Shown here: positions 30,322-49,350 of the stretch, one piece after another
Position numbering within the stretch: the first letter of the stretch is position 1
Layout of the letters: every line of letters starts with the position of its first letter
Virus record (IMG/VR): IMGVR_UViG_3300032335_000499
Length of the DNA stretch: 64,000 bases
Origin: a virus
Taxonomy: Duplodnaviria; Heunggongvirae; Uroviricota; Caudoviricetes
Strand: one strand, 5' to 3'
Position numbers and translations under genes: made by a program
The notes under the pieces: model-generated
The model's database searches: none
What the model saw: the letters and a program-made list of their open reading frames with translations, nothing else
What the model was told of the DNA's origin: nothing

Positions 30322-30403
30322 AATCTCTTGTTATGAATTAACTATATCAATAATATGAAAAGAAGTCAAGAGCTTTTGGGTACTGCTCTTGACTTCTTAT
30401 AGA

Positions 30404-30480: not shown

Positions 30481-30488
30481 ATTAAGTT

Positions 30489-30563: not shown

Positions 30564-30614
30564 ATAAACTCTATAAACTATTTAATCTTGTTATAGCAGC
30601 TTGACAAATAAATG

Positions 30615-30809
30615 TCAAGCCGCTAATTGCGCTACGCAGTAATACCGAACCTCTATGTTTATAGAAGCTTCAAGCGCATACTTGTATCTCTCACCTGTAT
30701 CCTTGCACATTTCAATAGACTCTTGTGGCATATTGTCTTGCCACAAGAGTTCTACCTTCTTAGTGCTAGGATTCATATAGAATACATAAGCTATCAGTAG
30801 TATTTTCAT
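30615..30809 (-). CDS. small hypothetical protein
   Basis: ORF, promoter-like tgtcaag upstream. Confidence 0.3.
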   Translation of the reverse strand: MKILLIAYVFYMNPSTKKVELLWQDNMPQESIEMCKDTGERYKYALEASINIEVRYYCVAQLAA

Positions 30810-30840
30810 ATACTACTCTTAACATATTATTAACTATATG

Positions 30841-31407
30841 TCAAGCCGCTAATTGAACAATTCTACTGTGTTTGGGCACACCGCTCAACAGATACTCCAT
30901 TTGGTCAGCAAGGATGCTGCGATTCTGGAGAATCATGTTTTCGTAGTGGTTGGGCGCATACGGAATGTATAACAGTTCCATACCTGATTGCTTCAAACTC
31001 TTACAGCCCTTCTTTTGGTTGCAAGGAATACAAGCAGTAACAACATTAGTCCATTCGTCAATACCACCGTGGTACCTAGGTACAATGTGGTCTCGACTTA
31101 ACTTAGCGTGATTGTTAATGTGAACACCACAGTAACCACAAATGTTACGATCACGAGCGAACAGAGTTTTGTTAGTCAAGATAACCTTGTTGTGCTTCTT
31201 GAAGTTGAAACCCTCACCTTTAATAGCGATAATGCTAGGAGTTTCAAGATAACTCTGCGTACCATCAATTCGATAGCCGCCTCGATATCTAGCAATTACA
31301 TCGCCCAGTGTCCAACCTACCAAGTTCTTTGCGTGATACGAAATTGCTTCGTCGTGGGAGACCCACGTTCGCGGGGTACCCGATATGTCTAAGGCTAGTA
31401 CTGCCAT
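30841..31407 (-). CDS. HNH endonuclease
   Basis: CGYCGVHINNHAKLSRDHIVPRYHGGIDEWTNVVTACIPCNQKKG (HNH with flanking Cys pairs). Confidence 0.65.
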   Translation of the reverse strand: MAVLALDISGTPRTWVSHDEAISYHAKNLVGWTLGDVIARYRGGYRIDGTQSYLETPSIIAIKGEGFNFKKHNKVILTNKTLFARDRNICGYCGVHINNHAKLSRDHIVPRYHGGIDEWTNVVTACIPCNQKKGCKSLKQSGMELLYIPYAPNHYENMILQNRSILADQMEYLLSGVPKHSRIVQLAA

Positions 31408-31503
31408 AAAAACTCCTATTTCTTTCTATATTTAATTCAACTGATATTCCTTAGTGTCAGTTTACATTACATCAGATTGACCTCATTGTCAACTAGAATC
31501 TGC

Positions 31504-31589
31504 TGGTGCCCAAGAAAAGACTCGAACTTTCACGGGCTTTCGCCCACAACGACCTCAACGTTGCGTGTCTACCATTCCACCACCTGGGC
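31504..31589 (-). tRNA. tRNA-Leu(GAG)
   Basis: anticodon stem CAACG/CGTTG loop TTGAGGT; long variable arm. Confidence 0.65.
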
Positions 31590-31593
31590 ATAT

Positions 31594-31685
31594 TGGTACT
31601 CCTGCTCGGATTCGAACCGAGACCGATCCCTAATCTGGGCTTCGGGATATAAATCCGACCGCTCTAACCATTAAGCTACAGGAGT
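31594..31685 (-). tRNA. tRNA-like gene with ~17-nt expansion of the anticodon region (possible TAT anticodon, tiny intron, or pseudo-tRNA); acceptor identical to CAT tRNA at 27894..27968
   Basis: ACTCCTG/CAGGAGT acceptor, GCTT..GAGC D-arm, perfect CTCGG-TTCGAAT-CCGAG T-arm, 38 nt between D- and T-arms. Confidence 0.35.
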
Positions 31686-31686
31686 A

Positions 31687-32355
31687 TTAAATTTTAAATG
31701 TGAATGCAAAAGATACAGTGTTGTCTTCAATCCGATCCTTTGTATACAAGTCTTGAATTGAGAAACTTGTTTTCTCACTCAATTTGTATTTGATTTCTGC
31801 TTTATTCTGAATGAAGGTTCTAGAACCCTGCTCAATCATGAACTTATTAGATACAGATAGTGCTTTGCTTAGATTATGACTAATCCATACACTTTCACGA
31901 ACTACTACATCGCTGTATCCACCCGTGCCGTGCTTGTAACCAACGCTAAGTTCGTTTGATATCTTAGTCTTATCATTCTTTACGATTCTGAAACCGTGAC
32001 CAATGCTATAAACTGCTTGATCTTCTGAGAATGTTCTTGGATCGTGACGATAGCGAACACCTGCTTGAACATAGTGCTTAGGATGAATGTCCTGATTGAT
32101 TTTAGCAAATGCGTTAATCTGCTCTCTAGAAGTTACGCCGTTAGCACTCTTATAAAGAATGTCACTCTCAAATGAGTATTCTCTAGGGCCCGTGTCAGTA
32201 ACGTGCTTGAATGCTCCTGTCAAAACAATGTTATCGTCATTGATAACTGTTCCGCCTAATGAACCCGTTGTTTCTCTCTCAACCTGAGCATATGCAGGTA
32301 AAGAAAATAATAATGCTGCTGATAGTATAAGTGTTCTAAACATAGTAATCTCCAA
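31687..32355 (-). CDS. outer-membrane beta-barrel protein (OmpA/OmpW-like small porin family) with signal peptide
   Basis: Signal peptide ending AYAQ; alternating hydrophobic beta-strand pattern; C-terminal FTFKI. Confidence 0.5.
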   Translation of the reverse strand: MEITMFRTLILSAALLFSLPAYAQVERETTGSLGGTVINDDNIVLTGAFKHVTDTGPREYSFESDILYKSANGVTSREQINAFAKINQDIHPKHYVQAGVRYRHDPRTFSEDQAVYSIGHGFRIVKNDKTKISNELSVGYKHGTGGYSDVVVRESVWISHNLSKALSVSNKFMIEQGSRTFIQNKAEIKYKLSEKTSFSIQDLYTKDRIEDNTVSFAFTFKI

Positions 32356-32372
32356 ACTACTATTTAGCAGTT

Positions 32373-32458
32373 TGGTGCCCCGAGAGGGACTTGAACCCCC
32401 ACGCCTTTTGGGCAGAAGATTTTGAATCTTCCGCGTCTACCGATTCCACCATCGGGGC
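32373..32458 (-). tRNA. tRNA-Leu(CAA)
   Basis: anticodon stem GAAGA/TCTTC loop TTCAAAA; long variable arm. Confidence 0.7.
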
Positions 32459-32561
32459 AAATTGGTATCGGTTCAGCAGTTCAGGTTCTAGTTATAGTGA
32501 CCCTCATAGTGTGCCTTGAAGCATCGTTCTAGACCGATGACTTCTTCCGATTTCTGAATTT

Positions 32562-32646
32562 TGGTGCGGCTGAAGGGACTCGAACCCCCACACCTTACGA
32601 TACTGGTACCTAAAACCAGGGCGTCTACCAATTCCGCCACAGCCGC
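32562..32646 (-). tRNA. tRNA-Leu(TAG)
   Basis: anticodon stem CTGGT/ACCAG loop TTTAGGT; long variable arm. Confidence 0.7.
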
Positions 32647-32799
32647 ATGTTAAATGTATTTACTCGCCGTAACTAGTGTCTCAAATTTAGTTACTGATAC
32701 TAACTCAATAGTACTGCTACGGACATCAGGTACACTCCTGTTTGGTTTGAGAATGAAACAGGGTCACATATGGTCACCGTACACACACGAGTAAAATTA

Positions 32800-32875
32800 T
32801 GGTGCCTCCCCAGGGAATCGAACCCCAACCTCTGCTTCTTCAGAGCAGCGCGCCAACCATGTACGCCAGAGAGGC
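32800..32875 (-). tRNA. tRNA-Phe(GAA)
   Basis: anticodon stem CTGCT/AGCAG loop CTGAAGA. Confidence 0.7.
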
Positions 32876-32881
32876 ATTAAA

Positions 32882-33508
32882 CTATTTTATACCTGGATCA
32901 ATCAAACCTAATTGACTGAATGCCCAAGCTCTTTCATTGCATCTATTACAAGTGCCACATGGTGTATCAATATCATAAACACAGCTATGCGTCAATGTAA
33001 ATAGCTTTTCCAATCCTAACTGAATAATTAGCTGCACTACATGTGCTTTGGTTAGGTCTTTTAGTGGATAGTTGAACATTTCAGAATTTACAGGTACATA
33101 TGGTTTAGGTACATTATGCAATGCATGTTCTTCCAATGTCTGTATTATTCCTATATAGATCCTATTACGATTAGTTTTATATAACTCACGCATGCCGGCT
33201 GCTACTTGTAATTCACTATCTATTTCATCTATATCAAGTTTAGTAGCATACTGTTGCTCAATACCCAAACTCTCATGAACATAGTCAATGACAGGTTGAG
33301 CATATCGTGATGAACCATCGTTCCTAATTATAGTATAAGGTATAACGCTATATCTATCATCAGATAATGTCAGCTTCCTTATCAAATAATACAGCAATGC
33401 ACTATCTAACCCACCACTAACTAACACTCCTATTCTTCTATGGAGCGTTAATTTTACTTTTACCGGTCTAAGGTCACCATTAATATTTGATTCTAATCTG
33501 ATAGCCAT
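32882..33508 (-). CDS. QueC-like PP-loop ATPase (7-cyano-7-deazaguanine synthase family) with C-terminal Cys4 zinc site
   Basis: LVSGGLDSALL PP-loop plus C-terminal HSCVYDIDTPCGTCNRCNERAW resembling QueC CxxC...C zinc ribbon. Confidence 0.5.
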   Translation of the reverse strand: MAIRLESNINGDLRPVKVKLTLHRRIGVLVSGGLDSALLYYLIRKLTLSDDRYSVIPYTIIRNDGSSRYAQPVIDYVHESLGIEQQYATKLDIDEIDSELQVAAGMRELYKTNRNRIYIGIIQTLEEHALHNVPKPYVPVNSEMFNYPLKDLTKAHVVQLIIQLGLEKLFTLTHSCVYDIDTPCGTCNRCNERAWAFSQLGLIDPGIK

Positions 33509-33593
33509 ATAATATTTAGCCTAAAGAAAAAGAAGGTTACTTTTTAAATCTTCGCAACTTATCCTGCGTAAATACATGATAACGGAGAATAAA

Positions 33594-34403
33594 ATGAAAA
33601 TAATAGTGGTTAGTACTGGTAGAGCTAGATGTACTTTGCTAGCAAAATATCTTCACATCTTACATGACGATTTAGAATTTTGCGGAGAGTTTTACAATGC
33701 ACAGCAGGCAAAACTTGACAGGCAAGTTGAAAAATTTGCAGTAACTCCCTCAATCAGAAAAGACTTTTTAACAGATCCTACCGGCGAAAACATTGACTTA
33801 GTTAAGAGTACTAATGCACTATTTGATAAAGAAAACTTTTTAGTAAAATTAATGGCACTATGTCTTGACTTTGATAAAAATCAAGACCCTTCAGTATTCA
33901 GACTTGCAGAATACGATCAAATACACTTTATTGAACGACATGATTTTTTTGAACAATGTTGTAGTTGGGAAGTATCAACGAAAGAAAAAGTATTTCATTT
34001 AACTAACAATCCCGAAATAGAAAAAGAATTTAGTAACATAAGACAACGAAAATATAAAATATCACCGGAACGAATAGAACATGCTGCAACTTTTGTTGAT
34101 CTTTACTTAAAAATAAAAAAGTATGCAACAGATAACAATCTGCCATATACCGTTCATACCTATGAAAGTGCTAAACAGTTTGACAAAACACAAAATGAAT
34201 TAGTTGATGCAAAACTTGATTATAGCGAGTTAATAACTAACTATCACCTGAAGGAAGAAGTTAATAAACTATTCAATAAATATTTTTCGTATGACGACAT
34301 AACAAGTGATCCAAAAGCGTTTATGGCAGCGATTAGTCAAGTCGAAGGACTTCGTTCTTTACAAAGTTTTGCAGATAAGATGGCTGCTAAATGGAAAAAG
34401 TAA
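33594..34403 (+). CDS. hypothetical protein, possibly P-loop sulfotransferase-like (Stf0-type)
   Basis: Start moved to MKIIVV (GGAG 8 nt upstream); VSTGRARCTLL resembles sulfotransferase 5'-PSB-like loop; weak. Confidence 0.35.
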   Translation: MKIIVVSTGRARCTLLAKYLHILHDDLEFCGEFYNAQQAKLDRQVEKFAVTPSIRKDFLTDPTGENIDLVKSTNALFDKENFLVKLMALCLDFDKNQDPSVFRLAEYDQIHFIERHDFFEQCCSWEVSTKEKVFHLTNNPEIEKEFSNIRQRKYKISPERIEHAATFVDLYLKIKKYATDNNLPYTVHTYESAKQFDKTQNELVDAKLDYSELITNYHLKEEVNKLFNKYFSYDDITSDPKAFMAAISQVEGLRSLQSFADKMAAKWKK

Positions 34404-34413
34404 ATATTTAATA

Positions 34414-34488
34414 TGGTAGCCCGAACGGGTTCCGACCCCGCTTCTCTGCCTTGAAAGGGCAGTGTCCTAGCCACTAGACGACCGGGCC
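34414..34488 (-). tRNA. tRNA-Glu(TTC)
   Basis: Closely resembles E. coli tRNA-Glu (TCGTCTAGTGGCTAGGACACTGCCCTTTCAAGGCAG); anticodon loop CTTTCAA. Confidence 0.7.
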
Positions 34489-34562
34489 ATAATCTCTCGG
34501 GGCCTGCACAGCCCCTTCCCCCGTAACAATTGTGCAGTATCCCAGGGAGTACCTCTATAAAT

Positions 34563-34639
34563 TGGTCGGGGTAGCCGGATTTGAACCGACGACCACTTGT
34601 CCCCCAGACAAGTGCGCTACCTGGCTGCGCTATACCCCG
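34563..34639 (-). tRNA. tRNA-Pro(GGG)
   Basis: C1-G72 acceptor CGGGGTA/TACCCCG; anticodon loop CTGGGGG. Confidence 0.7.
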
Positions 34640-35114
34640 TTGATGTGGCCGCCCGGCAAGTTTGTTCCGTCCCCCTGCGAACAACATAAACAGTGAAGCA
34701 CAAGGTGAGCCGGGCGATAATATGGCGCGCCCGCTTATTTTCTATGCTGGGGCTACTTTCGGAAGGTAGTCCATGCATGCGGACGCATAAGAATGGAGCC
34801 AGCGGTAACGGTATGTTCGTCACTACTATAGTGGGTATCACTCGCCGGCATAAGTTAAATTCCGAGAAACTGCATTACTAGCTTGAAGGGCCAGACATGT
34901 TCCCAGAGAAAGTGTTCTAGTGGATAGCTGATAGTTACGCCAATCCAGAATCTATAATCAGTAATCAAATTTGAACACGAATTCATACACCGAACCAGTA
35001 GTCCAGTCTTCTTGTCTTCGTGATAATGTGGTTCATGGTTTTTCATACAATGTCTATCTCTTTGTTCATATACTAGTATACTATATATCAAGTAGCTTGT
35101 CAACCTAATATGTA

Positions 35115-35189
35115 TGGTACACCCTACTGGGCTTGAACCAGTGACCTTCTGGATGTCGACCAGATGCTCTACCACTGAGCTAAGGGTGC
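35115..35189 (-). tRNA. tRNA-Val(GAC)
   Basis: anticodon loop TCGACAT. Confidence 0.65.
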
Positions 35190-35196
35190 ATAAAAC

Positions 35197-35274
35197 TGGG
35201 GTGAAAGACGGGACTCGAACCCGCGACATTCGGCATCACAAGCCGACGCTCTAACCAACTGAGCTACAATCACC
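35197..35274 (-). tRNA. tRNA-His(GTG) with G-1:C73
   Basis: anticodon stem TCGGC/GCCGA loop TTGTGAT; extra 5' G pairing with discriminator C. Confidence 0.65.
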
Positions 35275-35280
35275 ATAAAC

Positions 35281-35354
35281 TGGCATACGCTGTAGGAGTC
35301 GAACCCACGCTAACTGGGTTGGAACCAGTCGTGCTACCGTAACACTTAGCGTAC
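35281..35354 (-). tRNA. tRNA-Trp(CCA), copy 2 (different sequence from copy 1)
   Basis: anticodon stem ACTGG/CCAGT loop TTCCAAC. Confidence 0.55.
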
Positions 35355-35584
35355 ATGAAATTAGATTCTAGGCGCGGTTGATGTAGCCTCTACCTTGATA
35401 GGGCTTCTTATCTACCGGTGCAGACCTAGGAATATCTTTAAATACGATCTTAATATTCGAAAGTTTATATATTTCTGCTAGCAATAATTCTTTGCCCATG
35501 AATGCCGATCGGTTTTCAGGCGTGTCGGGCACAAACATTACGCATTCTACAGATTCGCTTCTCATATTATCATATTCCTTATAA

Positions 35585-35662
35585 TGGTGCAACCAGAAGG
35601 ATTCGAACCTTCAACCTTCGGTTTCGTAGACCGACGCTCTATCCAGTTGAGGCTATGGCTGC
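35585..35662 (-). tRNA. tRNA-Arg(ACG)
   Basis: anticodon stem TCGGT/ACCGA loop CTACGAA. Confidence 0.7.
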
Positions 35663-35669
35663 ATTAACT

Positions 35670-35746
35670 TGGTGGTCCCTGAGGGATTCGAACCCCCGAC
35701 ATTCTGTTTCGAAGACAGACGCTCTATCCGGCTGAACTAAGAGACC
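35670..35746 (-). tRNA. tRNA-Arg(TCG)
   Basis: anticodon loop CTTCGAA. Confidence 0.65.
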
Positions 35747-35756
35747 AAATAAGAAA

Positions 35757-35832
35757 TGGTGCTGTTGGAGAGGATTGAACTCTCGACCTCTTCATTACCA
35801 ATGAAGTGCTACTACCACTGAGCTACAACAGC
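35757..35832 (-). tRNA. tRNA-Thr(GGT)
   Basis: anticodon stem CTTCA/TGAAG loop TTGGTAA. Confidence 0.7.
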
Positions 35833-36025
35833 ATATTACAATATTGCGCTGCTTTCTTTTCGGCAGTGCTTAATTTTTTATATCGTTTACTTTCGTCAAC
35901 GACCTTCATGAAGGAAGCATATCTTACATAATAGCCTTGTTCGTCTTTGCAAACAGTGGCACCTTTTCTGCTACCAGATAAGCCCCAATATGCTTTAATT
36001 ACTATCATACTTCCTCACAAAATTT

Positions 36026-36099
36026 TGGATGCCCCACAAGGACTCGAACCTCGATTGACGGAGTCAAAGTCCGCTCTCTTACCATTAGAGGATGGGGCA
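36026..36099 (-). tRNA. tRNA-Gln(TTG)
   Basis: U1-A72 acceptor TGCCCCA/TGGGGCA; anticodon loop CTTTGAC. Confidence 0.65.
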
Positions 36100-36151
36100 A
36101 CATCAAAGCAAGTGTTATTATATATGTTTTGTCAAACATTGTCAAATATTT

Positions 36152-36227
36152 TGGATGCCCGACTAGGGCTCGAACCTAGAACCTACTGAGTCAGAGTCAG
36201 TTGATCTACCAATTGATCTATCGGGCA
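36152..36227 (-). tRNA. tRNA-Gln(CTG)
   Basis: U1-A72 acceptor TGCCCGA/TCGGGCA; anticodon loop CTCTGAC. Confidence 0.7.
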
Positions 36228-37115: not shown

Positions 37116-37676
37116 ATGAACTACGATTCCTTCTCACACGGTCAAATCCAAAGCAAAGTCTGGCTTTGCAAAGAAATTGAACGCTTTGTCCATGCTAACA
37201 TCAAGATTGCTATCTTGGGAAGCTGGTACAATGTGCTTTCATTTATGCTTCTTACACGGAACGCAGATAGATATCAATACATTTTGGGCGTAGACATTGA
37301 CCCGGAGACAAAAGAGATTGCAGACAAGCTTACCGAAGCTTGGCGAATCGGTAAGGATTATAAGGTTGAGAACATCATAGCCGATGCAAACTCTATTGAT
37401 GTGGCGGGCTACGACCTCATAATCAACTGTTCACCGGAGCATATGGATAGCAACGATTGGTTTGAGAATCTTGAGTATGGCACTATGGTCTGTATTCAAT
37501 CAAGCAACGTACATATCGCAGATGATGATGTTTGGAAGTGTGTCAACTCTAACGAATCATTGGAAGACCTGACACTAAAATACCCGTTATCAAAGTATCT
37601 TTACTCCGGGGAGAAGGAGATTCGATATAGCGATGACAACGGGTATAAGAGGTTTATGCTAATCGGTATTAAATGA
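37116..37676 (+). CDS. Rossmann-fold protein, possible SAM-dependent methyltransferase
   Basis: IAILGSW..N then LGVDIDPE (motif I / II-like spacing); weak. Confidence 0.35.
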   Translation: MNYDSFSHGQIQSKVWLCKEIERFVHANIKIAILGSWYNVLSFMLLTRNADRYQYILGVDIDPETKEIADKLTEAWRIGKDYKVENIIADANSIDVAGYDLIINCSPEHMDSNDWFENLEYGTMVCIQSSNVHIADDDVWKCVNSNESLEDLTLKYPLSKYLYSGEKEIRYSDDNGYKRFMLIGIK

Positions 37677-38133
37677 GACACTTACCAATAGCAGGGATTA
37701 AACCTGCTATCTTAGCAATATCTATAAGTTGTTCATCAGTGTAGTCCAACTCTTTCAACCCAATCCTAACAATATCAATACTAAGTTCATCTTTGAGAAC
37801 CATAGCAACAGCTAAATTATAGGGAGTAATCTTGATATCTAAATCAGTAAAGCAATCTCTACTGACATTGTTAATAGTCATATCTAGTACTGATGCAGCT
37901 ACTTCCGCGCGGACATCATTTCCTCTAAGTTCACTACTCATTGAAATTTCAAGAGCCAGTTCACCATAACCTACTGCTAAAGCAGCAGCTAAAGCACAAG
38001 AATGTGCCTCTACAGTAGAAAGACTATTATCTTTCATAACGGCTTCAAGCCGTTCTCCCAACTGCGATGCATAGTCGGGTAAACTCATTGTTACAGCAGT
38101 GACCCAATTGCCGGGTTGTATTAATGGTTGCAT
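37669..38133 (-). CDS. hypothetical protein, possibly AhpD/carboxymuconolactone-decarboxylase-like
   Basis: All-helical, EAHSCALAAALAVGY segment reminiscent of AhpD core; weak. Confidence 0.3.
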   Translation of the reverse strand: MQPLIQPGNWVTAVTMSLPDYASQLGERLEAVMKDNSLSTVEAHSCALAAALAVGYGELALEISMSSELRGNDVRAEVAASVLDMTINNVSRDCFTDLDIKITPYNLAVAMVLKDELSIDIVRIGLKELDYTDEQLIDIAKIAGLIPAIGKCLI

Positions 38134-38714
38134 TATTGCTTTCCTTTTACTACTCTATACATTGCCCTTGCGCCTTGACCACCGGGGTGAATACCATCAC
38201 CTAGTGCGCCATACTTTTCTAGTGAACCCAAGAAGATGGCGCCTTCTTGACGGGCAACTTCTGCTAAACGTGCATTAACGTTCTGTTTAGCAAAGTTAAC
38301 ACGATAGGTACCATATCGATTGGTTAACCAAGGGCTGTAACGTGACCCTGTACCGACAAGATACACAGTAGCACCTGCATTCTTCAACAAGCGAATTTGC
38401 TGATTGATGGGGCTAGTATCAAGATTACGTCCTTCACCATTCTTTCGCTCATATGTGCTATTACTAGCGCCGCTGCTAAGAATAACAATTGCACCCTTAG
38501 CATTACCAGTACTAATGAAACGTTTAATGTAGCCAATGATTACGCGGGTATCTTTGCCACCCTTGCGCCAAACATTATTACCCGCACGATCAAGTCCATT
38601 TGCATTAGCAATACCCACAGCAATACTATCACCAATGACATATGTTGCTGCATTAGCAGGAACTGTGAAGGCGAACAACGCAGCAAAACTCAATACCAAA
38701 TTCTTAAACATCAA
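38133..38714 (-). CDS. secreted SGNH/GDSL-family hydrolase
   Basis: Signal peptide MMFKNLVLSFAALFAFTVPANA then YVIGDSIAVG (block I GDS), later GDGIHPG (block V DxxH-like). Confidence 0.5.
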   Translation of the reverse strand: MMFKNLVLSFAALFAFTVPANAATYVIGDSIAVGIANANGLDRAGNNVWRKGGKDTRVIIGYIKRFISTGNAKGAIVILSSGASNSTYERKNGEGRNLDTSPINQQIRLLKNAGATVYLVGTGSRYSPWLTNRYGTYRVNFAKQNVNARLAEVARQEGAIFLGSLEKYGALGDGIHPGGQGARAMYRVVKGKQ

Positions 38715-38722
38715 TCTTCTCC

Positions 38723-39127
38723 TTAAAGTCCAGAATCTTTTACGATTCTACGGTAGCCGGTAAAAGTTGGATGAACACCATCTTTACTGAGAGACTTAAT
38801 AGTTACTGTTGAGTCGCCATATTGGCTAGCAATTTTCTTAACAATAGCCTGCTTTGCCGGCTTGATTGCAGGTACAATCCAAACCACTCTTTTAGCTTGG
38901 ATTTGTTTACGCAATTTGTTAAGTTCTTTTTCACTATTCAGATACCTGGTATCGTTGCTACCTAAGCTAATGACTACTGTATTTGCATCCAACTGCTTGG
39001 TGTGCAGATATACATCATTCCAATGCTTTGAATTCCAACCACTGTGGGCATAAGATACGCAATGCGTCGGCGCGACCATCTTTGTACCAACTGCAATGCT
39101 ATCGCCCAAAATTAAACATTCTAACAT
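38723..39127 (-). CDS. SGNH/GDSL-family hydrolase (paralog of upstream gene, no signal peptide)
   Basis: MLECLILGDSIAVGT ... SKDGVHPT. Confidence 0.5.
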   Translation of the reverse strand: MLECLILGDSIAVGTKMVAPTHCVSYAHSGWNSKHWNDVYLHTKQLDANTVVISLGSNDTRYLNSEKELNKLRKQIQAKRVVWIVPAIKPAKQAIVKKIASQYGDSTVTIKSLSKDGVHPTFTGYRRIVKDSGL

Positions 39128-39138
39128 TATCTTCTCCT

Positions 39139-39543
39139 TTAAAAATCTACATTATGGTGTTGCCAAATCTTATCAGTGCCGCCTAAATGACCCCAATCGC
39201 TATCAACAACCATTTTGCTACTAATACCGCCTCTTGGCCTAAACTTGATTTCAAGTCGCATTCTGAATGGGCTGTATGCTTCCATTAGATGCTTATACAT
39301 TACATCAATTGCTCGTTCATAACTAATAATAGTATCTCTATATTGTAGCAGATATTCCTTCAAACTCTTTAGTTCAATCGTCTTTTCATTACCGTGAAAC
39401 CAAATCTTAATATGTCCAAAATCAGGCTGATTCTTTACTCCAAGAAAAGTGAATTCTGGAATATCAATCTGTTGTTCATATCCGTTTGCTGCATTTGGCA
39501 AACTAGCTAATGTGTTTTCTATATTCTTCCAAAGTTTTGGCAT
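39139..39543 (-). CDS. hypothetical protein (134 aa)
   Basis: ORF only. Confidence 0.4.
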   Translation of the reverse strand: MPKLWKNIENTLASLPNAANGYEQQIDIPEFTFLGVKNQPDFGHIKIWFHGNEKTIELKSLKEYLLQYRDTIISYERAIDVMYKHLMEAYSPFRMRLEIKFRPRGGISSKMVVDSDWGHLGGTDKIWQHHNVDF

Positions 39544-39596
39544 TAACTATATTCCTTTCTAGATAGGTTGGAAGGGACCGAATTCCCTTCCGTAGA

Positions 39597-40664
39597 TTAC
39601 AGTGCGAGGTGACTGTAATCAAACATTGCCTTTTCCTTAGCACGAGTAAGAATGAGACGGGCACCTTTGCTTTCAAAGATGAACTTACCTTCCTGACTGT
39701 TTAAGTTGATAAGATGCTCAGGGGTGAAGTGCAAATCTGCCCATTCGCCATCCTCATCATTTGGATTAGGATCATATTCTAAACCAATTCCCTTGATAGC
39801 AAGCGGGTTGCCTCGCCAGATTTCAGGACTAATGTCGCCCTTACGAACTTCCTTACCATCACTGATAAGCTTGATTTCGTACTTAGCGCCATCATCATAT
39901 TCAGGCTTAGCGTTAAGCATTTCAAGTGCTTCGGAAGGAGTCTCGTTGTAACGATTCATTTCTTCAACAAGTGCCTTGAGCATGTCAAAATTGAACTCAC
40001 CGAACAAGCTAGTCAACGAACAAATCTGATCGATGTACTGCTTATTGTTGAGGTTGTCTTCGCAATATTCACGAATGAATACCTGGTCAAGACCCTTGAA
40101 GTCAAGCAAGTAGAAGATACGACCGGGGCGATTACGCATGTGCGAATCAACACGCCACTTGTCATTCACTGTCAAGATGTAAAGCTTCTTTGAACCGAAC
40201 ACACCATCAAGCAGTGTGAGGATTTCTTCCTGCTTCTCGCGGTCATAGACCTTTTCAAATTCATCAAAGAGAACGACACACGGCTGGTCAATGTCCTGTA
40301 ACAGCTTGAAGAAACCATCGCCAGTCCAATCACGATTGATTACGATAGTAGGAACGCCTTCCTTCGCAAGTTCAACAGAAATGTTCTTAGCAAGAAGTGT
40401 CTTACCAGAACCTTTTTCACCGTTCAATAGAACACCAGTCTGTTGCGGGCGTTCCCAAAAGCTGTTGATGATTCGGTCAGTATGACGAAGTGTGTTGCCG
40501 TACATCTTTGATGGGATTTCAAAATTGTCAATAGATTCAAGATAGAAGTTGCCCATCGGGTCTACTGCAACAGTGTAGTTGCCTGCAGGAAGCTGTTCAT
40601 GCAAATCCATTGCTTCCTTGCTGGAAACTCGAAAACTTGTACCGTTCTTCAAAAAGTATGCCAT
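39597..40664 (-). CDS. AAA-family ATPase
   Basis: Walker A GEKGSGKTLLAK, Walker B VVLFDEFE; start moved to MAYFLKNG. Confidence 0.55.
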   Translation of the reverse strand: MAYFLKNGTSFRVSSKEAMDLHEQLPAGNYTVAVDPMGNFYLESIDNFEIPSKMYGNTLRHTDRIINSFWERPQQTGVLLNGEKGSGKTLLAKNISVELAKEGVPTIVINRDWTGDGFFKLLQDIDQPCVVLFDEFEKVYDREKQEEILTLLDGVFGSKKLYILTVNDKWRVDSHMRNRPGRIFYLLDFKGLDQVFIREYCEDNLNNKQYIDQICSLTSLFGEFNFDMLKALVEEMNRYNETPSEALEMLNAKPEYDDGAKYEIKLISDGKEVRKGDISPEIWRGNPLAIKGIGLEYDPNPNDEDGEWADLHFTPEHLINLNSQEGKFIFESKGARLILTRAKEKAMFDYSHLAL

Positions 40665-40677
40665 CTTATCTTCTTTC

Positions 40678-40974
40678 TTAGATATGTTCGCCGTCAGGAC
40701 GACGACCCAGAACAACTCGGAATGCTTCTGGCTTTAATGACGCAGTAGTATATGCCGCAACAGTTAATGCAGCAGCGCCAATAAGTACAGCATGAGCGAT
40801 TAGATTCACTCCCATAAACGCATATGTGCCAGTTGCGATTGAGAATGAAATTGCCCACATCCAACCCAAAAGTTGATAGACCATATGCCTAATGTTGCCC
40901 TCAGGGATATTTCGCAGGGGACTCTTGTTATAATCAAAAATAAAATTCCAACTTGCTAATATAATATTCTTCAT
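40678..40974 (-). CDS. small integral membrane protein (2 TM)
   Basis: two hydrophobic stretches. Confidence 0.4.
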   Translation of the reverse strand: MKNIILASWNFIFDYNKSPLRNIPEGNIRHMVYQLLGWMWAISFSIATGTYAFMGVNLIAHAVLIGAAALTVAAYTTASLKPEAFRVVLGRRPDGEHI

Positions 40975-40984
40975 TGGGGTATCC

Positions 40985-41365
40985 TCAAAACTTCAAAAGG
41001 TTAAACGCAAGCAAAATATCTCGCTTGTCTTCATCAATGGGATGAACTGCAATTGCAGTCATTTCACCACCATTCAAGTCTGGCTCAACAAAGTGTTCGT
41101 ACTTGATACCAAACTCAAACAGAATCTTTTCGACAGCAAGAAGTGCCTCAAGATTCCTAACTCCGACACAGGTAAAATATGTATTATCTGCATCAGCATC
41201 CTTACCCAACGCGGAACCTAGCTTGTACGCAACATGTGCAGTCTGCACAAGCTGGTACTCCTTAAAGATATCTTGACGGGTAAAGAAATATGCGTATCGT
41301 TTTGTCATATTCTTCTTATAACAGGGGTTAACCGTAAAGTCAACCCCTATTTTAAGTTTAGGCAA
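40985..41365 (-). CDS. hypothetical protein (126 aa)
   Basis: ORF only. Confidence 0.4.
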   Translation of the reverse strand: MPKLKIGVDFTVNPCYKKNMTKRYAYFFTRQDIFKEYQLVQTAHVAYKLGSALGKDADADNTYFTCVGVRNLEALLAVEKILFEFGIKYEHFVEPDLNGGEMTAIAVHPIDEDKRDILLAFNLLKF

Positions 41366-42188
41366 AAATTTCTAGTGCTGTTCCACACTCGCTACAGAAC
41401 TTTGCAGTAGCTTTGTTCTGCTTGCCGCAAGTTACACACTTAGGCTTAGACTTAACAGTGATTGGCTTGCGAATCGCTTCATTGTCAGGTGTTTCACCTA
41501 GCAACTTGAGAATGATATTGTGCTTCTCTGATTCAGTTGCGAACCAACTTGCAGTCACAAACTTCTGTTCACTCTTACTACCTGCAACAGTGATTCCTGT
41601 TTCAGTCTGCGGTGCTGCGTTGTATGACTGGGCTGCGGCACTTGTGTTTATTGTCGCAGAACCAACTGCCATACTAGTTGCGGCATAGGATGCGCTTGAA
41701 CAAGTAATGGTGCCTGACATTGACTTAGGTGCGGCGGCTGTTGTATGTCTTATTACATCGCCATAATATGAATCCATTGAAGTAGGTTGCCAATTTGGCG
41801 TAGTGACAGCCCAGGTCGCTGGCTGATATGTCGTATAGACTTTTTCAAACTGATATTCTACACGAATCAAGCCATCTTCTAGCTTGACACCGCGATGGTC
41901 TTCAATCTTACCAGTGCGTTCAATAAACTTGAACTTGTTACCTTCATTCATGTTACCATTGCGAATGGCTCGTTGTAAGTCAATCTCTTGCCCCGCATTT
42001 AACACGAGTCCGCCTGGCACGATATTGTCACCATCAATATAGATGTTAATCAATGCTCTTACTGTGTTGAGATTTTTGAGAAGAATACTGTATTCACTTC
42101 CGAATGGAACATAAACAGTATCTTTGAATTCGCGGAGTACTTTTCCGTTGGCTTTGATGCTGGCAACCAGCTTACTATTATACATCAT
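41358..42188 (-). CDS. hypothetical protein with C-terminal zinc ribbon
   Basis: CVTCGKQNKATAKFCSECG at C-terminus. Confidence 0.4.
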   Translation of the reverse strand: MMYNSKLVASIKANGKVLREFKDTVYVPFGSEYSILLKNLNTVRALINIYIDGDNIVPGGLVLNAGQEIDLQRAIRNGNMNEGNKFKFIERTGKIEDHRGVKLEDGLIRVEYQFEKVYTTYQPATWAVTTPNWQPTSMDSYYGDVIRHTTAAAPKSMSGTITCSSASYAATSMAVGSATINTSAAAQSYNAAPQTETGITVAGSKSEQKFVTASWFATESEKHNIILKLLGETPDNEAIRKPITVKSKPKCVTCGKQNKATAKFCSECGTALEIFA

Positions 42189-42266
42189 GTTTCTTCCTTT
42201 CTACGGACCACAGACTAAGGCCCTAATTCTTAAAGTCTGTTACGAAGCTTCATACTTCAACTATAT

Positions 42267-43253
42267 TTATATTATGACGAGGTTGTTTTTAAAAATCAAC
42301 CAGCAGTTTTCCCAAGTCCACTTTTTGCTTTTTTCATATACGGTTGTCCTGTCTAAATCCAAACAGTGGTCAATAGCAACAGACAGACTATTATCCATAA
42401 AGCCTGTTTCGTGTTGGTCAATAACATCTTTAGGACCAGTAACATTGTAAGCTGCGACAGGGACACCACAAGCCATTGATTCAATCATTACAATACCGAA
42501 TGTATCTTCTCTGCTTGGAAACACGAATACATCACTGTTAGCATAATATTCTGCTAACTCGTTGCCACGCTTTACCCCAACAAATTCTACATTAGGATAT
42601 TTTGATTCTAGTTCTTTTCTATAAGGACCATCGCCTACTACAATCTTTTTAGCATTAGGATACGCCAGTGAACAAAAATCATCTAGTCCTTTTTCTTTAC
42701 TGACTCTACCCACATTGATTAAGGTTAGACCAGATGTTTTTGTTCTAGGGTAAAATATCTTAGTATCTACTCCTCGGGTCCATGACAGTATATTGCCAGT
42801 AAAGCCATTGTCTTTTAATTCTTCTACCATAGTCTGAGTAGTAGTTAGTACAACACCGCTATGTTTGTGGAACCAGCGCAAATAGTTGTATGTATATTTT
42901 TCAGGTATGTGGTATATTCTTTCTACAAATTCTGGAAACTTAGTATGATAGCTTGTATTGTATTTCCACTTGTGTTTATCAAGCCAAAGTTTAGCAGCAA
43001 GACCAATAGGTCCTTCTGTTGCAATATGCACATAGTCTGGATTTATATCTTTAATCTTCTTACCTATCCTAAGTGGTATAGAAAGCTTTACCTCAGGATA
43101 TCTAGGTGCTGAAAAATTATAGAAACAATGCGGATTGATGAACTCTATCTTAAAGTTATCTTTTCCAGCCAGCATTTTTAGATTTTCAAATGTGGTTGCT
43201 ACACCATTCACTTGTCCATCAACAATATCAGTAATTACAAGTATCGTTTTCAT
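42267..43253 (-). CDS. GT4-family glycosyltransferase (GT-B fold)
   Basis: FPSREDTFGIVMIESMACGVPV (E-x7-E motif) and overall GT4 architecture. Confidence 0.65.
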   Translation of the reverse strand: MKTILVITDIVDGQVNGVATTFENLKMLAGKDNFKIEFINPHCFYNFSAPRYPEVKLSIPLRIGKKIKDINPDYVHIATEGPIGLAAKLWLDKHKWKYNTSYHTKFPEFVERIYHIPEKYTYNYLRWFHKHSGVVLTTTQTMVEELKDNGFTGNILSWTRGVDTKIFYPRTKTSGLTLINVGRVSKEKGLDDFCSLAYPNAKKIVVGDGPYRKELESKYPNVEFVGVKRGNELAEYYANSDVFVFPSREDTFGIVMIESMACGVPVAAYNVTGPKDVIDQHETGFMDNSLSVAIDHCLDLDRTTVYEKSKKWTWENCWLIFKNNLVII

Positions 43254-43346
43254 TTTATAACGAAAGTGTTTTTATGCTTGAGCGATTTTTTTAATGACTT
43301 CATCCAAAGCTCTTTTTCTTTTTTTTGGTCTTTATTCAAAATAGCT

Positions 43347-44132
43347 TCATACATCTTTCTTACTAGTGTTTGTACCTTCATTTTTCATCTCCTGCCAAGT
43401 AATGATTTCCCAGCGTCCATCGTGATGCTCTACTAATGCAGTGCATGATTCTACCCAGTCACCGTCATTCATATAAACAATACCGTCTATCATTTTTATT
43501 TCAGCATTATGGATATGACCGCATATTACACCATCATAACCTTTACGCTTACAGTATGCAGTAACGTTTTGTTCAAACTTAAACATGAAGTCTACTGCCT
43601 TTTTGACTTTATGTTTGAGAAACTTTGATAGCGACCAATACCCGAAGCCCATCCGGTGTCTAATCCAGTTGAACCTACTGTTTAGTTCTAGCACAAAATC
43701 ATACGCTTTATCACCCAAAAAGCTTAACCAAGGAGCCAATCTAGTGATGCCATCAAACAGGTCGCCGTGTACTACGAGATACTTTTTGCCATCTACGCCC
43801 AAATGAGTATGCATGTTAGCGATTTGCATTCTGCCAAAACTTGCTGCATAAGGAATCATAGGGCGCAGAAATTCGTCATGGTTACCGGCAACATAAATCA
43901 CATCAGTATCTCTTTTACTGTGACCAAGAATCCTACGGACCACATTAGTATGTGATTGTTTCCAGCGTAGTTTATTTTGCTGCATTTTCCATGCATCTAT
44001 AATGTCACCTACAAGATATAATGTCTCACAAGTATTGTGCTTTAGAAAGTTGTTGAGAAGTTCTGCTTTACAGGATTTAGTACCCAAATGGACATCGCTG
44101 ATAAAAATTGTTCTGTAGGTTTTCTGTGACAT
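43347..44132 (-). CDS. LpxH-like metallophosphoesterase (UDP-2,3-diacylglucosamine pyrophosphatase family)
   Basis: ISDVHLG, LVGDIID, GNHDEFL, HGDLFD, GHIH motif order matches LpxH. Confidence 0.55.
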   Translation of the reverse strand: MSQKTYRTIFISDVHLGTKSCKAELLNNFLKHNTCETLYLVGDIIDAWKMQQNKLRWKQSHTNVVRRILGHSKRDTDVIYVAGNHDEFLRPMIPYAASFGRMQIANMHTHLGVDGKKYLVVHGDLFDGITRLAPWLSFLGDKAYDFVLELNSRFNWIRHRMGFGYWSLSKFLKHKVKKAVDFMFKFEQNVTAYCKRKGYDGVICGHIHNAEIKMIDGIVYMNDGDWVESCTALVEHHDGRWEIITWQEMKNEGTNTSKKDV

Positions 44133-44140
44133 ACAGCTAT

Positions 44141-44371
44141 TTAGCTAAACTTGCTGCGGACCGCTGTTGTAACATTATTAATGTCGGTGTTCTGTTTACG
44201 AATCTGCCTGCTATTAAGATTGAGTGTAGAAGCCATCTTGTGCAATTGTTCGCTTAACATGCGAACCTTTTCCTCTAAAACTTTAATACGCTTTTCGGCA
44301 TCAAGTTCTTTTTTATCAAACTCAACTATTTCTGTTTCTATTACCGGCTTGTTTGTATACATCGTCGCCAT
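44141..44371 (-). CDS. small coiled-coil protein
   Basis: ORF only. Confidence 0.3.
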   Translation of the reverse strand: MATMYTNKPVIETEIVEFDKKELDAEKRIKVLEEKVRMLSEQLHKMASTLNLNSRQIRKQNTDINNVTTAVRSKFS

Positions 44372-44373
44372 TG

Positions 44374-45270
44374 TTATTTCCTTTTTAAAGATATCTTATA
44401 CTTTATATATTCAGCAATATGCTCGGCTACATTTATTCCGCAGTATTTTTCAAATCCTTCGAAGCCTGGAGCACTATTTGCTTCACATATTTTATAGCCA
44501 TCTTTGTCAAACAACAAGTCTATTCCTGCAATTTCTAAACCACAGATTCTTGCTGTTTCTCTAGCAAGGTATTCTATTTCTCCAGTGACTGCAAACGGTT
44601 CGCCGTACCCACCATTTGAAATGTTTGCTCTGAAATCTCCGGGCGGAGCAATACGCTTCATTGCACCTATAACTTTTCCGCCAATGACTAATACACGCAA
44701 ATCTTCACCTGGTCGTTCGCCTATATATTCTTGAACTAGTAATGTTTTTGGAGTAGCAAGATTGCCTATGAACTCCATCATCTTTTTAAATGCTGTCTTG
44801 TTCTCGCACAGATAGATGCCCTCGCCATAACTACCACTGATGATTTTAACAACGCAAGGCCATCCTATTAGATTGTCTGCGATATCTACATCTACAGGAA
44901 ATCTAACAAGCATGGTATTAGGTACTGGCATTCCCTTACTAGCCAGTAACTGGTGACTACGCATTTTATCTTTTGCAATGTCTACGCCTACGGAAGAATT
45001 AATACATTTGATATGTTCTTCTTCAAACTGTCTAACGATAGCAGTGATGAACTCTGTGGTGCCTGAGCCTGTACGGGGTAATACGATATCAGGCATGTCA
45101 AACTCTTGTCCATTGTATTTGACACCATGACCGGTACCTTTTCCCACAACAACATCAAAGTTATCTGGATGATAAATGGTTGCAGGAATGCCTAAGTCAC
45201 GAAGACTTTCTACGAGACGACGATTTTCGTATTCGTCCTCGTCTTTTTTAGACAATATAAGTATTGACAT
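44374..45270 (-). CDS. RimK-family ATP-grasp ligase (alpha-L-glutamate ligase-like)
   Basis: Collinear with E. coli RimK (RSHQLLASKG vs RSMQLLARQG; VVKIISGSYGEGI; ILVQEYI; DLRVLVIGGKV; GDFRAN; GIDLL; EANSAPGFEG). Confidence 0.7.
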   Translation of the reverse strand: MSILILSKKDEDEYENRRLVESLRDLGIPATIYHPDNFDVVVGKGTGHGVKYNGQEFDMPDIVLPRTGSGTTEFITAIVRQFEEEHIKCINSSVGVDIAKDKMRSHQLLASKGMPVPNTMLVRFPVDVDIADNLIGWPCVVKIISGSYGEGIYLCENKTAFKKMMEFIGNLATPKTLLVQEYIGERPGEDLRVLVIGGKVIGAMKRIAPPGDFRANISNGGYGEPFAVTGEIEYLARETARICGLEIAGIDLLFDKDGYKICEANSAPGFEGFEKYCGINVAEHIAEYIKYKISLKRK

Positions 45271-48189: not shown

Positions 48190-49287
48190 TCAATCAAAAA
48201 GATCAACCTTTTCCCAAGGGAGATACGATTTTCCAAAGTGTCCGTAGTTGGTAGTAGAACTATAGATTGGTGAGAATAACTCAAAACGTTCAATAATACC
48301 TTTAGGGGTTAGGTCTACGTTTTCACGAATCCACTTTTCAATATCACGATTTTCACTGTCACTATCGACATAAAGACTAGTAGGTTCTTCTACTCCGATT
48401 GCATAGCTAAGCTGCACTTGTGCCCACTTAGCCTTACCACTAGCAACGATATTCTTAGCAAGATAACGAGCCATGTATGCTGCTGACCGGTCTACCTTAG
48501 TAGGGTCCTTACCGCTAAATGCGCCGCCTCCGTGTGGTGCGTAGCCGCCGTAAGTATCTACTATGATCTTGCGACCAGTTAAGCCAGTGTCACCGTTTGG
48601 TCCACCAATGACAAATCTTCCAGTAGGGTTGATAAGGAATTTAGTATCTTTGTCAATGTACTCTTTCGGTAATAATTCAGTGATAAATTCTTGTACTGAA
48701 CTTCTAACGTCTTCGATAGCAATATCAGGACTATGTTGGGTAGAGCATACAATTTTATCAAACCGCTTGATGGTATTATCATCATTGTACTCAATAGTAA
48801 CCTGACTCTTTGCATCAGGTCCTAACCAAAGAGCATCAGCGTTCTTACGAGCAAACGAAAGTCCTTCTACAATACGATGACTATAGTGAAGTGCTGCGGG
48901 CATATACGTGTCGGTGTCACTACATGCATATCCAAACATGATCCCTTGATCTCCGGCGCCAAAAGTATCAGTACCTAATGCAATATCAGGACTCTGACCG
49001 TGCATCAAGTTAGTAATCGCTAGGTCCTTCCAGTGAAAGCCTTCTTGGTCATAACCGATATTTTTTACAGTCTTACGAACTAGATATTCAACATCAAGTG
49101 AATCAAGTTCACCCTTATATTCTCCTGCAATAATAACTTGGTCAGTAGTTACTAACGTTTCGCAAGCGCAACGAAGTTTGGGGTCTTTATTAGTCATGAA
49201 CAAGTCTAGAATTGCATCGCTAATAGCATCTGCAACTTTGTCTGGATGTCCTTCTGACACTGATTCACTGGTAAATAGGTATGACAT
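48190..49287 (-). CDS. metK: S-adenosylmethionine synthetase (MetK)
   Basis: MSYLFTSESVSEGHPDKVAD, GAGDQGIMFGYA, GGGAFSGKDPTKVDRSAAY hallmark blocks; start moved to MSYLF (AGGAAA SD). Confidence 0.8.
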   Translation of the reverse strand: MSYLFTSESVSEGHPDKVADAISDAILDLFMTNKDPKLRCACETLVTTDQVIIAGEYKGELDSLDVEYLVRKTVKNIGYDQEGFHWKDLAITNLMHGQSPDIALGTDTFGAGDQGIMFGYACSDTDTYMPAALHYSHRIVEGLSFARKNADALWLGPDAKSQVTIEYNDDNTIKRFDKIVCSTQHSPDIAIEDVRSSVQEFITELLPKEYIDKDTKFLINPTGRFVIGGPNGDTGLTGRKIIVDTYGGYAPHGGGAFSGKDPTKVDRSAAYMARYLAKNIVASGKAKWAQVQLSYAIGVEEPTSLYVDSDSENRDIEKWIRENVDLTPKGIIERFELFSPIYSSTTNYGHFGKSYLPWEKVDLFD

Positions 49288-49350
49288 ATTATTTCCTTTA
49301 TTAAGAATTATAGAATAGTTTGCAGGGATTTGCAATATGTTTTGGGTGAT

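Follow-up and report, generated by a model that had tools for sequence, protein, structure and literature searches.

A candidate PlcP–Agt lipid-renovation cassette in the accessory-gene region of a large uncultured phage

We analysed positions 37116 to 45270 of a 64,000-nucleotide stretch of DNA, hereafter the window, from the Caudoviricetes virus record IMGVR_UViG_3300032335_000499. The interval contains fourteen open reading frames (ORFs), thirteen on the minus strand and one, the leftmost, on the plus strand; the gaps between its minus-strand ORFs range from -8 to 78 nt. A previous sequence-only reading had described it as a co-oriented cluster of eight genes, encoding two SGNH hydrolases, an AAA ATPase, a small membrane protein, a Zn-ribbon protein, a GT4 glycosyltransferase, an LpxH-like pyrophosphatase and a RimK-like glutamate ligase, that would remodel a host surface glycolipid or polysaccharide. 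All of the ORFs it named are present, and five further ones went unmentioned (a QueF-like gene at 39139-39543, a weakly AhpD-like ORF of 154 aa, and ORFs of 107, 76 and 186 aa). Co-orientation holds for the thirteen minus-strand ORFs, and the run is only partly co-oriented as the plus-strand ORF at 37116-37676 converges on it. As the minus-strand run extends well past 45270, through genes for a peroxiredoxin, an SPFH protein, the S-adenosylmethionine (SAM) synthetase MetK and ribonucleotide reductase (RNR), the edges of the interval are arbitrary. Rather than one system, the interval is part of a fast-changing region, rich in accessory genes, of a large uncultured phage. The single functionally coherent unit inside it is a cassette of two genes, a metallophosphoesterase gene (plcP) followed by a glycosyltransferase gene (agt).

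The product of plcP (g11; 43347..44132, minus strand; 261 aa) carries a calcineurin-like metallophosphoesterase domain (PF00149, 1.3e-12) and had been called LpxH-like. It was compared with PA3219 of Pseudomonas aeruginosa and SMc00171 of Sinorhizobium meliloti, two PlcP phospholipases C that have been characterised in lipid remodelling under phosphate stress (PMC8528852; PMC4796936 and references therein). The phage protein is 55% identical to PA3219 (266 bits) and 48% identical to SMc00171 (247 bits), and the two reference proteins share 47% identity with each other (249 bits). Given that characterised PlcP proteins share about 46-47% identity (PMC8528852), the similarity of g11 to PlcP reaches, in full-length comparison, the level found among characterised PlcPs themselves. 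In contrast, identity to Escherichia coli LpxH was only 24% (35 bits), the best LpxH in the PDB by sequence scored 26.9 bits, and both NCBIfam LpxH equivalogs were missed (NF003743, 53.9 bits against a cutoff of 134; TIGR01854, 40.1 bits against 190). The metal-binding motifs (DxH, GD, GNH[D/E], H, GHxH) are intact in g11, and residues D13, H15, G42-D43, G83-N84, H122, G205-H206 and H208 are invariant in an alignment of seq­uences from seven proteins. Furthermore, g11 displays the PlcP-only signatures GNHDEFLR, YWSLS and GDWVESCTALVEH, which were not found in LpxH. The characterised references were recovered by tblastn against PLSDB, from chromosomal replicons filed there as plasmids. The P. 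aeruginosa match adjoins cyaB (PA3217) and azoR3 and was thus identified as PA3219; the S. meliloti match adjoins an N-acyl homoserine lactone synthase/LuxR pair, which we take to be sinI/sinR, and was on this basis identified as SMc00171. The query of genome contigs was made with a single protein and returned three loci; an alignment query would reach further.

Annotation pipelines everywhere give the g11 family the product name "UDP-2,3-diacylglucosamine diphosphatase/LpxH". In an AlphaFold2 model of g11 (mean predicted local distance difference test score, pLDDT, 68), in which the insertion is of low confidence, the nearest solved folds were LpxH structures (TM-score 0.50-0.57), which explains this name. 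On the scores above, g11 classes as a PlcP-type phospholipase C that resembles LpxH only at the level of fold or superfamily. The family is abundant, with no fewer than 597 IMG/VR stretches and 8000 or more database proteins, and within the phage clade PlcP varies unusually little (75-87% identity). On a related contig of 367 kb, PlcP is 79% identical to that of the window, compared with 56% for the AAA protein and 53% for Agt. A phage-type PlcP (79%) and Agt (52%) are also encoded on an 18.5-kb contig (L163, NZ_JBBAKG010000110.1) of a metagenome-assembled genome (MAG) labelled 'Haliscomenobacter sp.'; binned in a Bacteroidota MAG, this contig is either mis-binned phage DNA or a hint to the host.

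The product of agt (g10; 42267..43253, minus strand; 328 aa) is a two-domain GT4 protein (PF13439, PF00534 and PF13692), and the previous assignment to this family was borne out by PF00534 at 1.5e-24. It is 37% identical over its full length to PA3218/Agt1 (233 bits, E 6e-79) and 28% identical to PA0842/Agt2 (141 bits), which was recognised by its neighbours plcH, plcR and cerN. Between Agt1 and Agt2 identity is 35% (153 bits), so that by bit score g10 lies nearer to Agt1 than Agt1 does to Agt2. Characterised Agts share 35-41% identity (PMC8528852), to which the end-to-end similarity of g10 and Agt1 is comparable. PA3218/Agt1 has been found experimentally to make monoglucosyl-diacylglycerol. 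The top NCBIfam matches of g10, all below their cutoffs, include several lipid-acceptor GT4 enzymes. These comparisons point to g10 as a GT4 enzyme closest to P. aeruginosa Agt1, and we hold with high confidence that g11 and g10 form a PlcP–Agt pair.

The sequence-only reading had not recognised its gene combination as a described system; the core pair, plcP–agt, has been described in bacteria as an operon for lipid renovation under phosphate stress (PMC4796936, PMC8528852). Bacterial plcP genes most often have agt downstream, and sometimes other glycosyltransferase genes such as pgt (PMC4796936). The best bacterial homologues of g11 and g10 are adjacent, in the same order, in Pseudomonas, Ralstonia, Methylobacterium, Sphingomonas and Roseomonas gilardii, and also on two MAG contigs. 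To quantify the linkage in viruses, we counted co-oriented glycosyltransferase genes within 2.5 kb downstream of plcP at 68 viral loci with enough downstream sequence. Such a gene was found at 57 of them (84%), of the GT4 type in 35 and GT2/GT21-like in 22. Conversely, plcP lay directly upstream of the agt-like gene in 65 of 72 GT4-anchored viral loci (90%); the linkage thus holds from either anchor. The GT2 partner, a protein of 238 aa that also scores above the GT21 Pfam cutoff, replaces GT4 downstream of PlcP (for example in L134, where it is ORF +1, and in L105, L106 and L149), which amounts to a swap of non-homologous partners. A search for plcP-linked bacterial homologues of this GT2 protein gave two weak matches (29-30%), one of them beside a PAP2 lipid phosphatase.

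In the window, the space between plcP and agt is filled by a lysine-rich ORF of 34 aa (43250..43354, minus strand; MYEAILNKDQKKEKELWMKSLKKSLKHKNTFVIK). This ORF starts 8 nt before plcP ends and runs 4 nt (ATGA) into the start of agt, ahead of which an obvious Shine-Dalgarno sequence is absent. The 34-aa ORF, which was called as a gene on contigs L170-L174, is a possible translational coupler; many other phage loci lack it, and there plcP and agt themselves overlap. As far as sequence comparison reaches, these results establish the identities of the two enzymes and their linkage as an operon.

Next, all window genes were mapped onto 160 related viral loci anchored on the AAA ATPase and the metallophosphoesterase. 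The nearest relatives (L001-L005) have AAA proteins 89-92% and RimK proteins 94-98% identical to those of the window, and are devoid of PlcP–Agt. They share a backbone that reads ...SPFH–Prx–RimK–76aa–[slot]–107aa–(98aa)–AAA–SGNH–154aa–186aa, and it is the bracketed slot that the cassette occupies in the window. Contigs with a 100% identical PlcP fall into two arrangements, of which one, seen in L171, matches the window. The other (L170, L172, L173 and L174) has a 5-kb insert that includes a Peptidase_S8 gene between RimK and the 76-aa ORF, and is without the Zn-ribbon, AAA and QueF-like genes, in place of which other genes are found, one of them PMM-like. These differences represent strain-level cassette turnover. 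The sequence-only reading had named scattering of its genes in related genomes as the finding that would speak against it, and for the cluster as a whole scattering is what we observed: PlcP–Agt is missing from the nearest relatives, and the Zn-ribbon, AAA and QueF-like genes are missing beside an identical PlcP. What survives, loosely, of the proposed glycolipid remodelling is one glycolipid-making unit of two adjacent genes, and not the module of eight. The SGNH, AAA, QueF-like and Zn-ribbon genes and the small ORFs are independent backbone or accessory genes.

By analogy with the characterised orthologues, from which both catalytic activities are taken, PlcP would be a cytoplasmic metallophosphoesterase with a helical insertion that cuts phosphatidylethanolamine, phosphatidylglycerol and phosphatidylcholine into diacylglycerol and a phosphorylated head group. 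Agt would then add a sugar from a UDP-sugar to the diacylglycerol to yield a phosphorus-free glycolipid, most likely monoglucosyl-diacylglycerol. During infection in phosphate-poor water, the phosphorus freed from host phospholipid could feed the synthesis of nucleotides and of the large phage DNA, and the glycolipid would refill the bilayer, so keeping the cell intact until lysis. Membrane phospholipid holds, by rough estimate, at least a tenth of the phosphorus of a phosphate-starved cell, an amount comparable to the DNA phosphorus of a few genomes of 340-367 kb, the size of related contigs. This role in infection is proposed from genomic context and by analogy. PlcP is flanked by nrdA and nrdB in five loci (L095, L113, L118, L120 and L122), where ThyX is the second gene upstream, and in two further loci, e.g. 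L092, nrdA lies upstream of PlcP. A secreted staphylococcal-nuclease-like (SNase-like) gene or ThyX often precedes PlcP, at some loci a BPL_N/GATase-like gene is its immediate upstream neighbour, and in the Pelagibacter phage Mosig PlcP divergently adjoins a phosphate ABC transporter gene. The nrdA/nrdB, SNase-like, ThyX and phosphate transporter neighbours hint at phosphorus or nucleotide supply, and the higher identity of PlcP than of AAA or Agt on the 367-kb contig is a further hint in favour of this role. Taken as a whole, the explanation as a PlcP–Agt auxiliary metabolic cassette, inclusive of its role in phosphorus supply, appears to us probable.

Several observations weigh against this explanation or parts of it. 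The predicted fold of g11 is nearest to LpxH, at moderate confidence, and as a solved PlcP structure is lacking, structure does not discriminate between the two. The alternative GT2 partner is without a characterised close homologue. The cultured phages Mosig and S-SRM01 carry PlcP without Agt, so that the glycosyltransferase can be dispensed with; selection may act on the release of phosphorus by itself, or on some other role. A scan for Pho boxes with an E. coli-type consensus, from which that of the host and the promoters of the phage may differ, gave 9 matches against 7.4 expected, which is no more than chance, and none of them upstream of the cassette.

The module proposed previously would have all eight genes co-evolve to remodel lipopolysaccharide (LPS), lipid A or a surface polysaccharide, with LpxH cleaving UDP-diacylglucosamine, the GT4 enzyme glycosylating, the SGNH hydrolases de-O-acetylating and RimK modifying. 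Its genes are indeed tightly packed on one strand, the SGNH, GT4 and metallophosphoesterase folds are real, and LpxH is the nearest solved fold of g11. Yet the gene set is not co-conserved, the metallophosphoesterase fails both LpxH equivalogs and sides with PlcP (55%, 266 bits) over LpxH (24%, 35 bits), and the AAA family also occurs in phages of Gram-positive hosts, which are without LPS. Searches with the window genes found no other lpx or LPS-pathway gene in the window, and no link of the SGNH, AAA, QueF-like or Zn-ribbon genes or the small ORFs to lipid A, LPS or capsule was seen. With the metallophosphoesterase read as PlcP, nothing points to a lipid A, LPS or capsule target; the LPS module is largely refuted by sequence comparison, and we regard it as highly improbable. 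Just as improbable is the proposal that PlcP is a phospholipase for lysis or host damage, or a generator of diacylglycerol signals, with an unrelated glycosyltransferase that modifies, for example, DNA or O-antigen. Modification of DNA or O-antigen is the task usually ascribed to phage glycosyltransferases (PMC7029224), and a holin-like protein with three transmembrane segments (PF11351) is encoded two genes upstream of PlcP in about 9 loci. However, the GT4 protein is a full-length homologue of the plcP-linked Agt1, the pair is joined by the bacterial gene order and by overlapping codons, and its linkage was recovered from both anchors.

The third alternative accepts an active PlcP–Agt pathway that is selected for the change it brings to the membrane, namely superinfection exclusion, resistance to cationic antimicrobials or grazers, or stability in the long latency of a jumbo phage. 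PlcP–Agt glycolipids protect P. aeruginosa against polymyxin B (PMC8528852), and lipid renovation has been argued to affect phage receptors (PMC9804370) and alters the outcome of grazing (PMC9457565); a glycosyltransferase partner that varies between GT4 and GT2 is what surface diversification would lead one to expect. On the other hand, the targets of the pathway are bulk glycerophospholipids, reached from the cytoplasmic side, no glycosyltransferase accompanies PlcP in the cultured phages mentioned above or in 9 of 68 viral loci, and the neighbours of PlcP are nucleotide-metabolism genes and not receptor or tail genes. We consider selection for membrane change unlikely, and favour a PlcP–Agt cassette that supplies phosphorus.

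The gene that opens the interval on the other side of plcP encodes a RimK-family ATP-grasp alpha-L-glutamate ligase (44374..45270, minus strand; 298 aa). This call of the previous reading was upheld by PF08443 (1.4e-49), the pre-ATP-grasp domain PF18030 (1.8e-15) and the family model TIGR00768 (230 bits, cutoff 143). The protein stays under the cutoff of the ribosomal protein S6 ligase equivalog (NF007764; 172.9 bits, cutoff 331). PlcP and/or Agt lay within 6 kb of RimK in 19 of 78 RimK-anchored viral loci, in at least four gene orders that include PlcP>RimK>Agt, PlcP>Agt>RimK and RimK>PlcP. RimK sits next to PlcP and Agt, or between them, in the RimK-anchored loci L192, L204, L207, L212, L215, L216, L217, L220, L222 and L248 and also in L087/L088, L117, L125 and L126; across the linked lineages, identity of PlcP to that of the window spans 38-87%. 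Five PlcP-anchored loci show RimK running across the PlcP stop, with an overlap of about 22-28 nt. The three genes are tightly stacked as PlcP>Agt>RimK at L248:789-8951, on a viral contig of 130 kb, with a PlcP 46-48% identical to that of the window.

The flanks of the L248 cassette encode FecR-like proteins, curlin-repeat proteins and a CHASE2–adenylate/guanylate cyclase. Pelagimyophages have been reported to carry curli genes (PMC7029224), and a second phage group may thus carry the cassette.

The closest relatives of the window keep RimK without PlcP–Agt, PlcP and Agt were not found nearby at the low-identity, cyanophage-like end of the RimK-anchored set, and the bacterial plcP–agt loci examined showed no RimK. 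The linkage of RimK to PlcP/Agt is more than we would expect from random placement in genomes of such size, although the loci are phylogenetically non-independent. RimK is a recurrent but non-obligate neighbour of plcP and agt. One possibility is that the ligase uses glutamate to amidate a lipid whose head group is carboxylated, or else a metabolite set free from the head group, giving rise to an undescribed phosphorus-free lipid; alternatively, it could couple the liquidation of lipids to modification of the ribosome (S6) in starved hosts. That PlcP, Agt and RimK constitute a true three-gene operon in several phage lineages, a virus-specific extension of lipid renovation in which RimK joins the same process, strikes us as distinctly doubtful.

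For the remaining genes, profile searches supported the previous family names unevenly: besides GT4 and RimK, the AAA and Zn-ribbon calls were confirmed, the SGNH calls obtained weak scores, and the LpxH call failed. Between RimK and plcP lies a 76-aa ORF (44141..44371, minus strand) with a weak DUF948 match only; it belongs to the backbone and travels with RimK, which it follows in the PlcP-less loci L001-L011. Beyond agt, a variable gene encodes a 276-aa protein with a C-terminal zinc ribbon (41358..42188, minus strand; PF13240, 30.7 bits, cutoff 25). It is missing from L170, L172, L173 and L174 and from L081/L082, all of which carry PlcP–Agt, and sometimes flanks the AAA gene in related phages. 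The next ORF (40985..41308, minus strand) is a backbone ORF found in relatives both with and without PlcP–Agt; its homologues are 107 aa long and begin with MTKRYAYFF, and the true start probably lies downstream of the listed TTG at 41365. A further backbone gene, also present in the PlcP-less relatives L003-L005, encodes a protein of 98 aa (40678..40974, minus strand) whose hydrophobic, transmembrane-like stretch at residues 51-80 agrees with its previous description as a small membrane protein.

The AAA+ ATPase gene (39597..40664, minus strand; PF00004, 7e-9; phrog_2376, 2e-95) encodes about 355 aa from an ATG at 40664, the listed TTG start (39597-40715) being probably 17 codons too far upstream. 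Its family is represented on more than 520 related viral contigs and in 409 records of cultured phages with hosts of many phyla, including Gram-positive ones; among them are phages of Microbacterium (58% identical), the Serratia jumbo phage BF, Phapecoctavirus and Herelleviridae. The protein is a generic large-phage ATPase. Of the two putative SGNH hydrolases, the shorter (38723..39127, minus strand; 134 aa) is cytoplasmic and shows by eye the motifs GDS, GSND and DGVHP, and the longer (38133..38714, minus strand; 193 aa) has the motifs GDS, GASN and DGIHP and a signal-peptide-like, hydrophobic N-terminus ending ...PANA|AT. The catalytic motifs and the one signal-like N-terminus agree with the previous reading of two hydrolases, one of them secreted, and the profile scores are weak (PF13472, 33.2 and 22.6 bits, respectively, cutoff 32.9). 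The 134-aa gene occurs at position +1 or +2 of AAA in 17 loci, whereas the 193-aa gene was found in just 4 of 160 loci at a coverage of at least 50%. A 154-aa backbone ORF with weak AhpD-like similarity (37669..38133, minus strand; TIGR00777, 20.9 bits, far under its cutoff) is conserved beside SGNH/AAA in relatives, and the converging 186-aa ORF (37116..37676, plus strand), 87-94% identical in L001-L004, had no match in Pfam, PHROG or NCBIfam. A separate module of AAA, SGNH and Zn-ribbon was considered and rejected as their adjacency recurs only partly; we read the adjacency of AAA, the 134-aa SGNH, the 154-aa ORF and the Zn-ribbon gene as backbone synteny.

A rare accessory gene encodes a QueF-like T-fold protein of 134 aa (39139..39543, minus strand; PF14489, 1.2e-18; TIGR03139, 78 bits, cutoff 87), found among the tested loci only in the near-identical contigs L007/L082 and in L171. 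Where the catalytic Cys region is expected it reads FLGVKNQPDF, compared with SLCPKTGQPDF in what we take to be the sequence of Bacillus subtilis QueF. The canonical catalytic Cys thus seems to be missing, and the protein is probably not a nitrile reductase. A role in 7-deazaguanine DNA modification was rejected: besides the apparent lack of the Cys, the only related gene nearby, a 208-aa ORF 6 kb away (32882-33508, minus strand), matches just the C-terminal end of QueC, and no complete 7-deazaguanine pathway was seen in the window.

The window as a whole is accessory-rich, with genes for RtcB, a PurT-like protein, SpeD, MetK, RNR and tail-fibre-like proteins. It contains 37 tRNA genes interspersed with ORFs at 18469-36227 (minus strand), one of which, an ARAGORN call at 22304-22395, has an abnormal anticodon loop. 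They are accompanied by RtcB (21021-22238) and a receiver-domain protein for cyclic-phosphate processing (26624-27130), and the region looks like one of tRNA supply and repair. The phage encodes both the SAM synthetase MetK (48190-49335, minus strand) and the SAM decarboxylase SpeD (28914-29306, minus strand), which suggests a polyamine or SAM-related auxiliary metabolism, and a class II aldolase gene (54168-54800) adjoins RNR. Against 50,697 phage records, megablast with the entire interval gave no match, and tblastn with a 958-aa ORF and a structural-like 387-aa ORF, both neighbours in the window, found nothing; the phage lineage is therefore not tied to a cultured relative. Scans for sigma-70 promoters and terminators gave results no better than those for shuffled sequences.

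Phosphate often limits phage production in lakes and oceans. If the proposed role is true, phages also tap host membrane phospholipid for phosphorus and mend the bilayer with glycolipid. The finding sets right a mis-annotation that is widespread and makes phage use of host membrane phosphorus directly testable, but the biochemistry is already known. A virocell study of 2025 noted that little is known on lipid remodelling in infected cells (PMC12282109), on which the cassette offers a concrete, clonable handle. In the literature we searched, no paper linked plcP or plcP–agt to phages, auxiliary metabolic genes or phage lipid renovation. Viral 'lpxH' (K03269) has been listed as an auxiliary gene of LPS biosynthesis in viromes from Lake Baikal and from phosphate-poor Eastern Mediterranean surface water (PMC9611531, PMC10653327), and a survey of pelagimyophages placed phage glycosyltransferases and UDP-glucose 6-dehydrogenase under LPS modification (PMC7029224). 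Such published entries may include mis-assigned genes of the PlcP/Agt pathway; if the "lpxH" entries are of the PlcP family, relabelling them would change what viral auxiliary-gene inventories say about phosphorus cycling.

Among known systems, the RimK protein resembles the 'ribosomal protein S6 glutaminyl transferase' of cyanophages S-RIM8, S-RIM12 and S-CAM8 (42-44% identity over 94% of the window protein). Like the window gene, these homologues are accessory genes of phages; they differ in standing among the least identical members of the RimK-anchored set, for which no PlcP/Agt was found nearby. LpxH has in common with g11 the calcineurin-like core, the same metal-binding motifs, a helical insertion that in g11 is predicted at low confidence, and the product name shared through the pipelines, whereas g11 is without a lipid A gene context and has PlcP-specific blocks that are absent from LpxH. 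The closest counterpart is the bacterial PlcP–Agt operon (PA3219–PA3218/Agt1; PB7211_983 and PB7211_960 of SAR11 HTCC7211; PlcP of Phaeobacter MED193; SMc00171 of S. meliloti; Agt of Agrobacterium tumefaciens), with 48-55% identity for PlcP and 37% for Agt1, the same order of plcP then glycosyltransferase, tight coupling, and partners other than GT4 as in the type 3 and type 5 neighbourhoods of bacteria (PMC4796936, PMC8528852). The phage copies differ in being encoded on viral contigs of more than 340 kb and about 130 kb, in the absence of a recognisable Pho box (by the E. coli-type consensus, from which the host's may differ), in the 34-aa bridging ORF of the lineage of the window, in the frequent position of RimK beside or between the pair, not seen in the bacterial loci examined, and in the unusual uniformity of the phage PlcP clade. 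Aquatic phages such as cyanophages and pelagiphages carry the phosphate-stress auxiliary genes pstS, phoA and phoH. As with these, PlcP–Agt would be a host-derived starvation response in a hypervariable region of an aquatic phage; while pstS, phoA and phoH handle external phosphate, PlcP–Agt would mobilise and replace internal membrane phospholipid. The enzymes and their operon are known from bacteria, and phosphate-stress auxiliary genes from aquatic phages.

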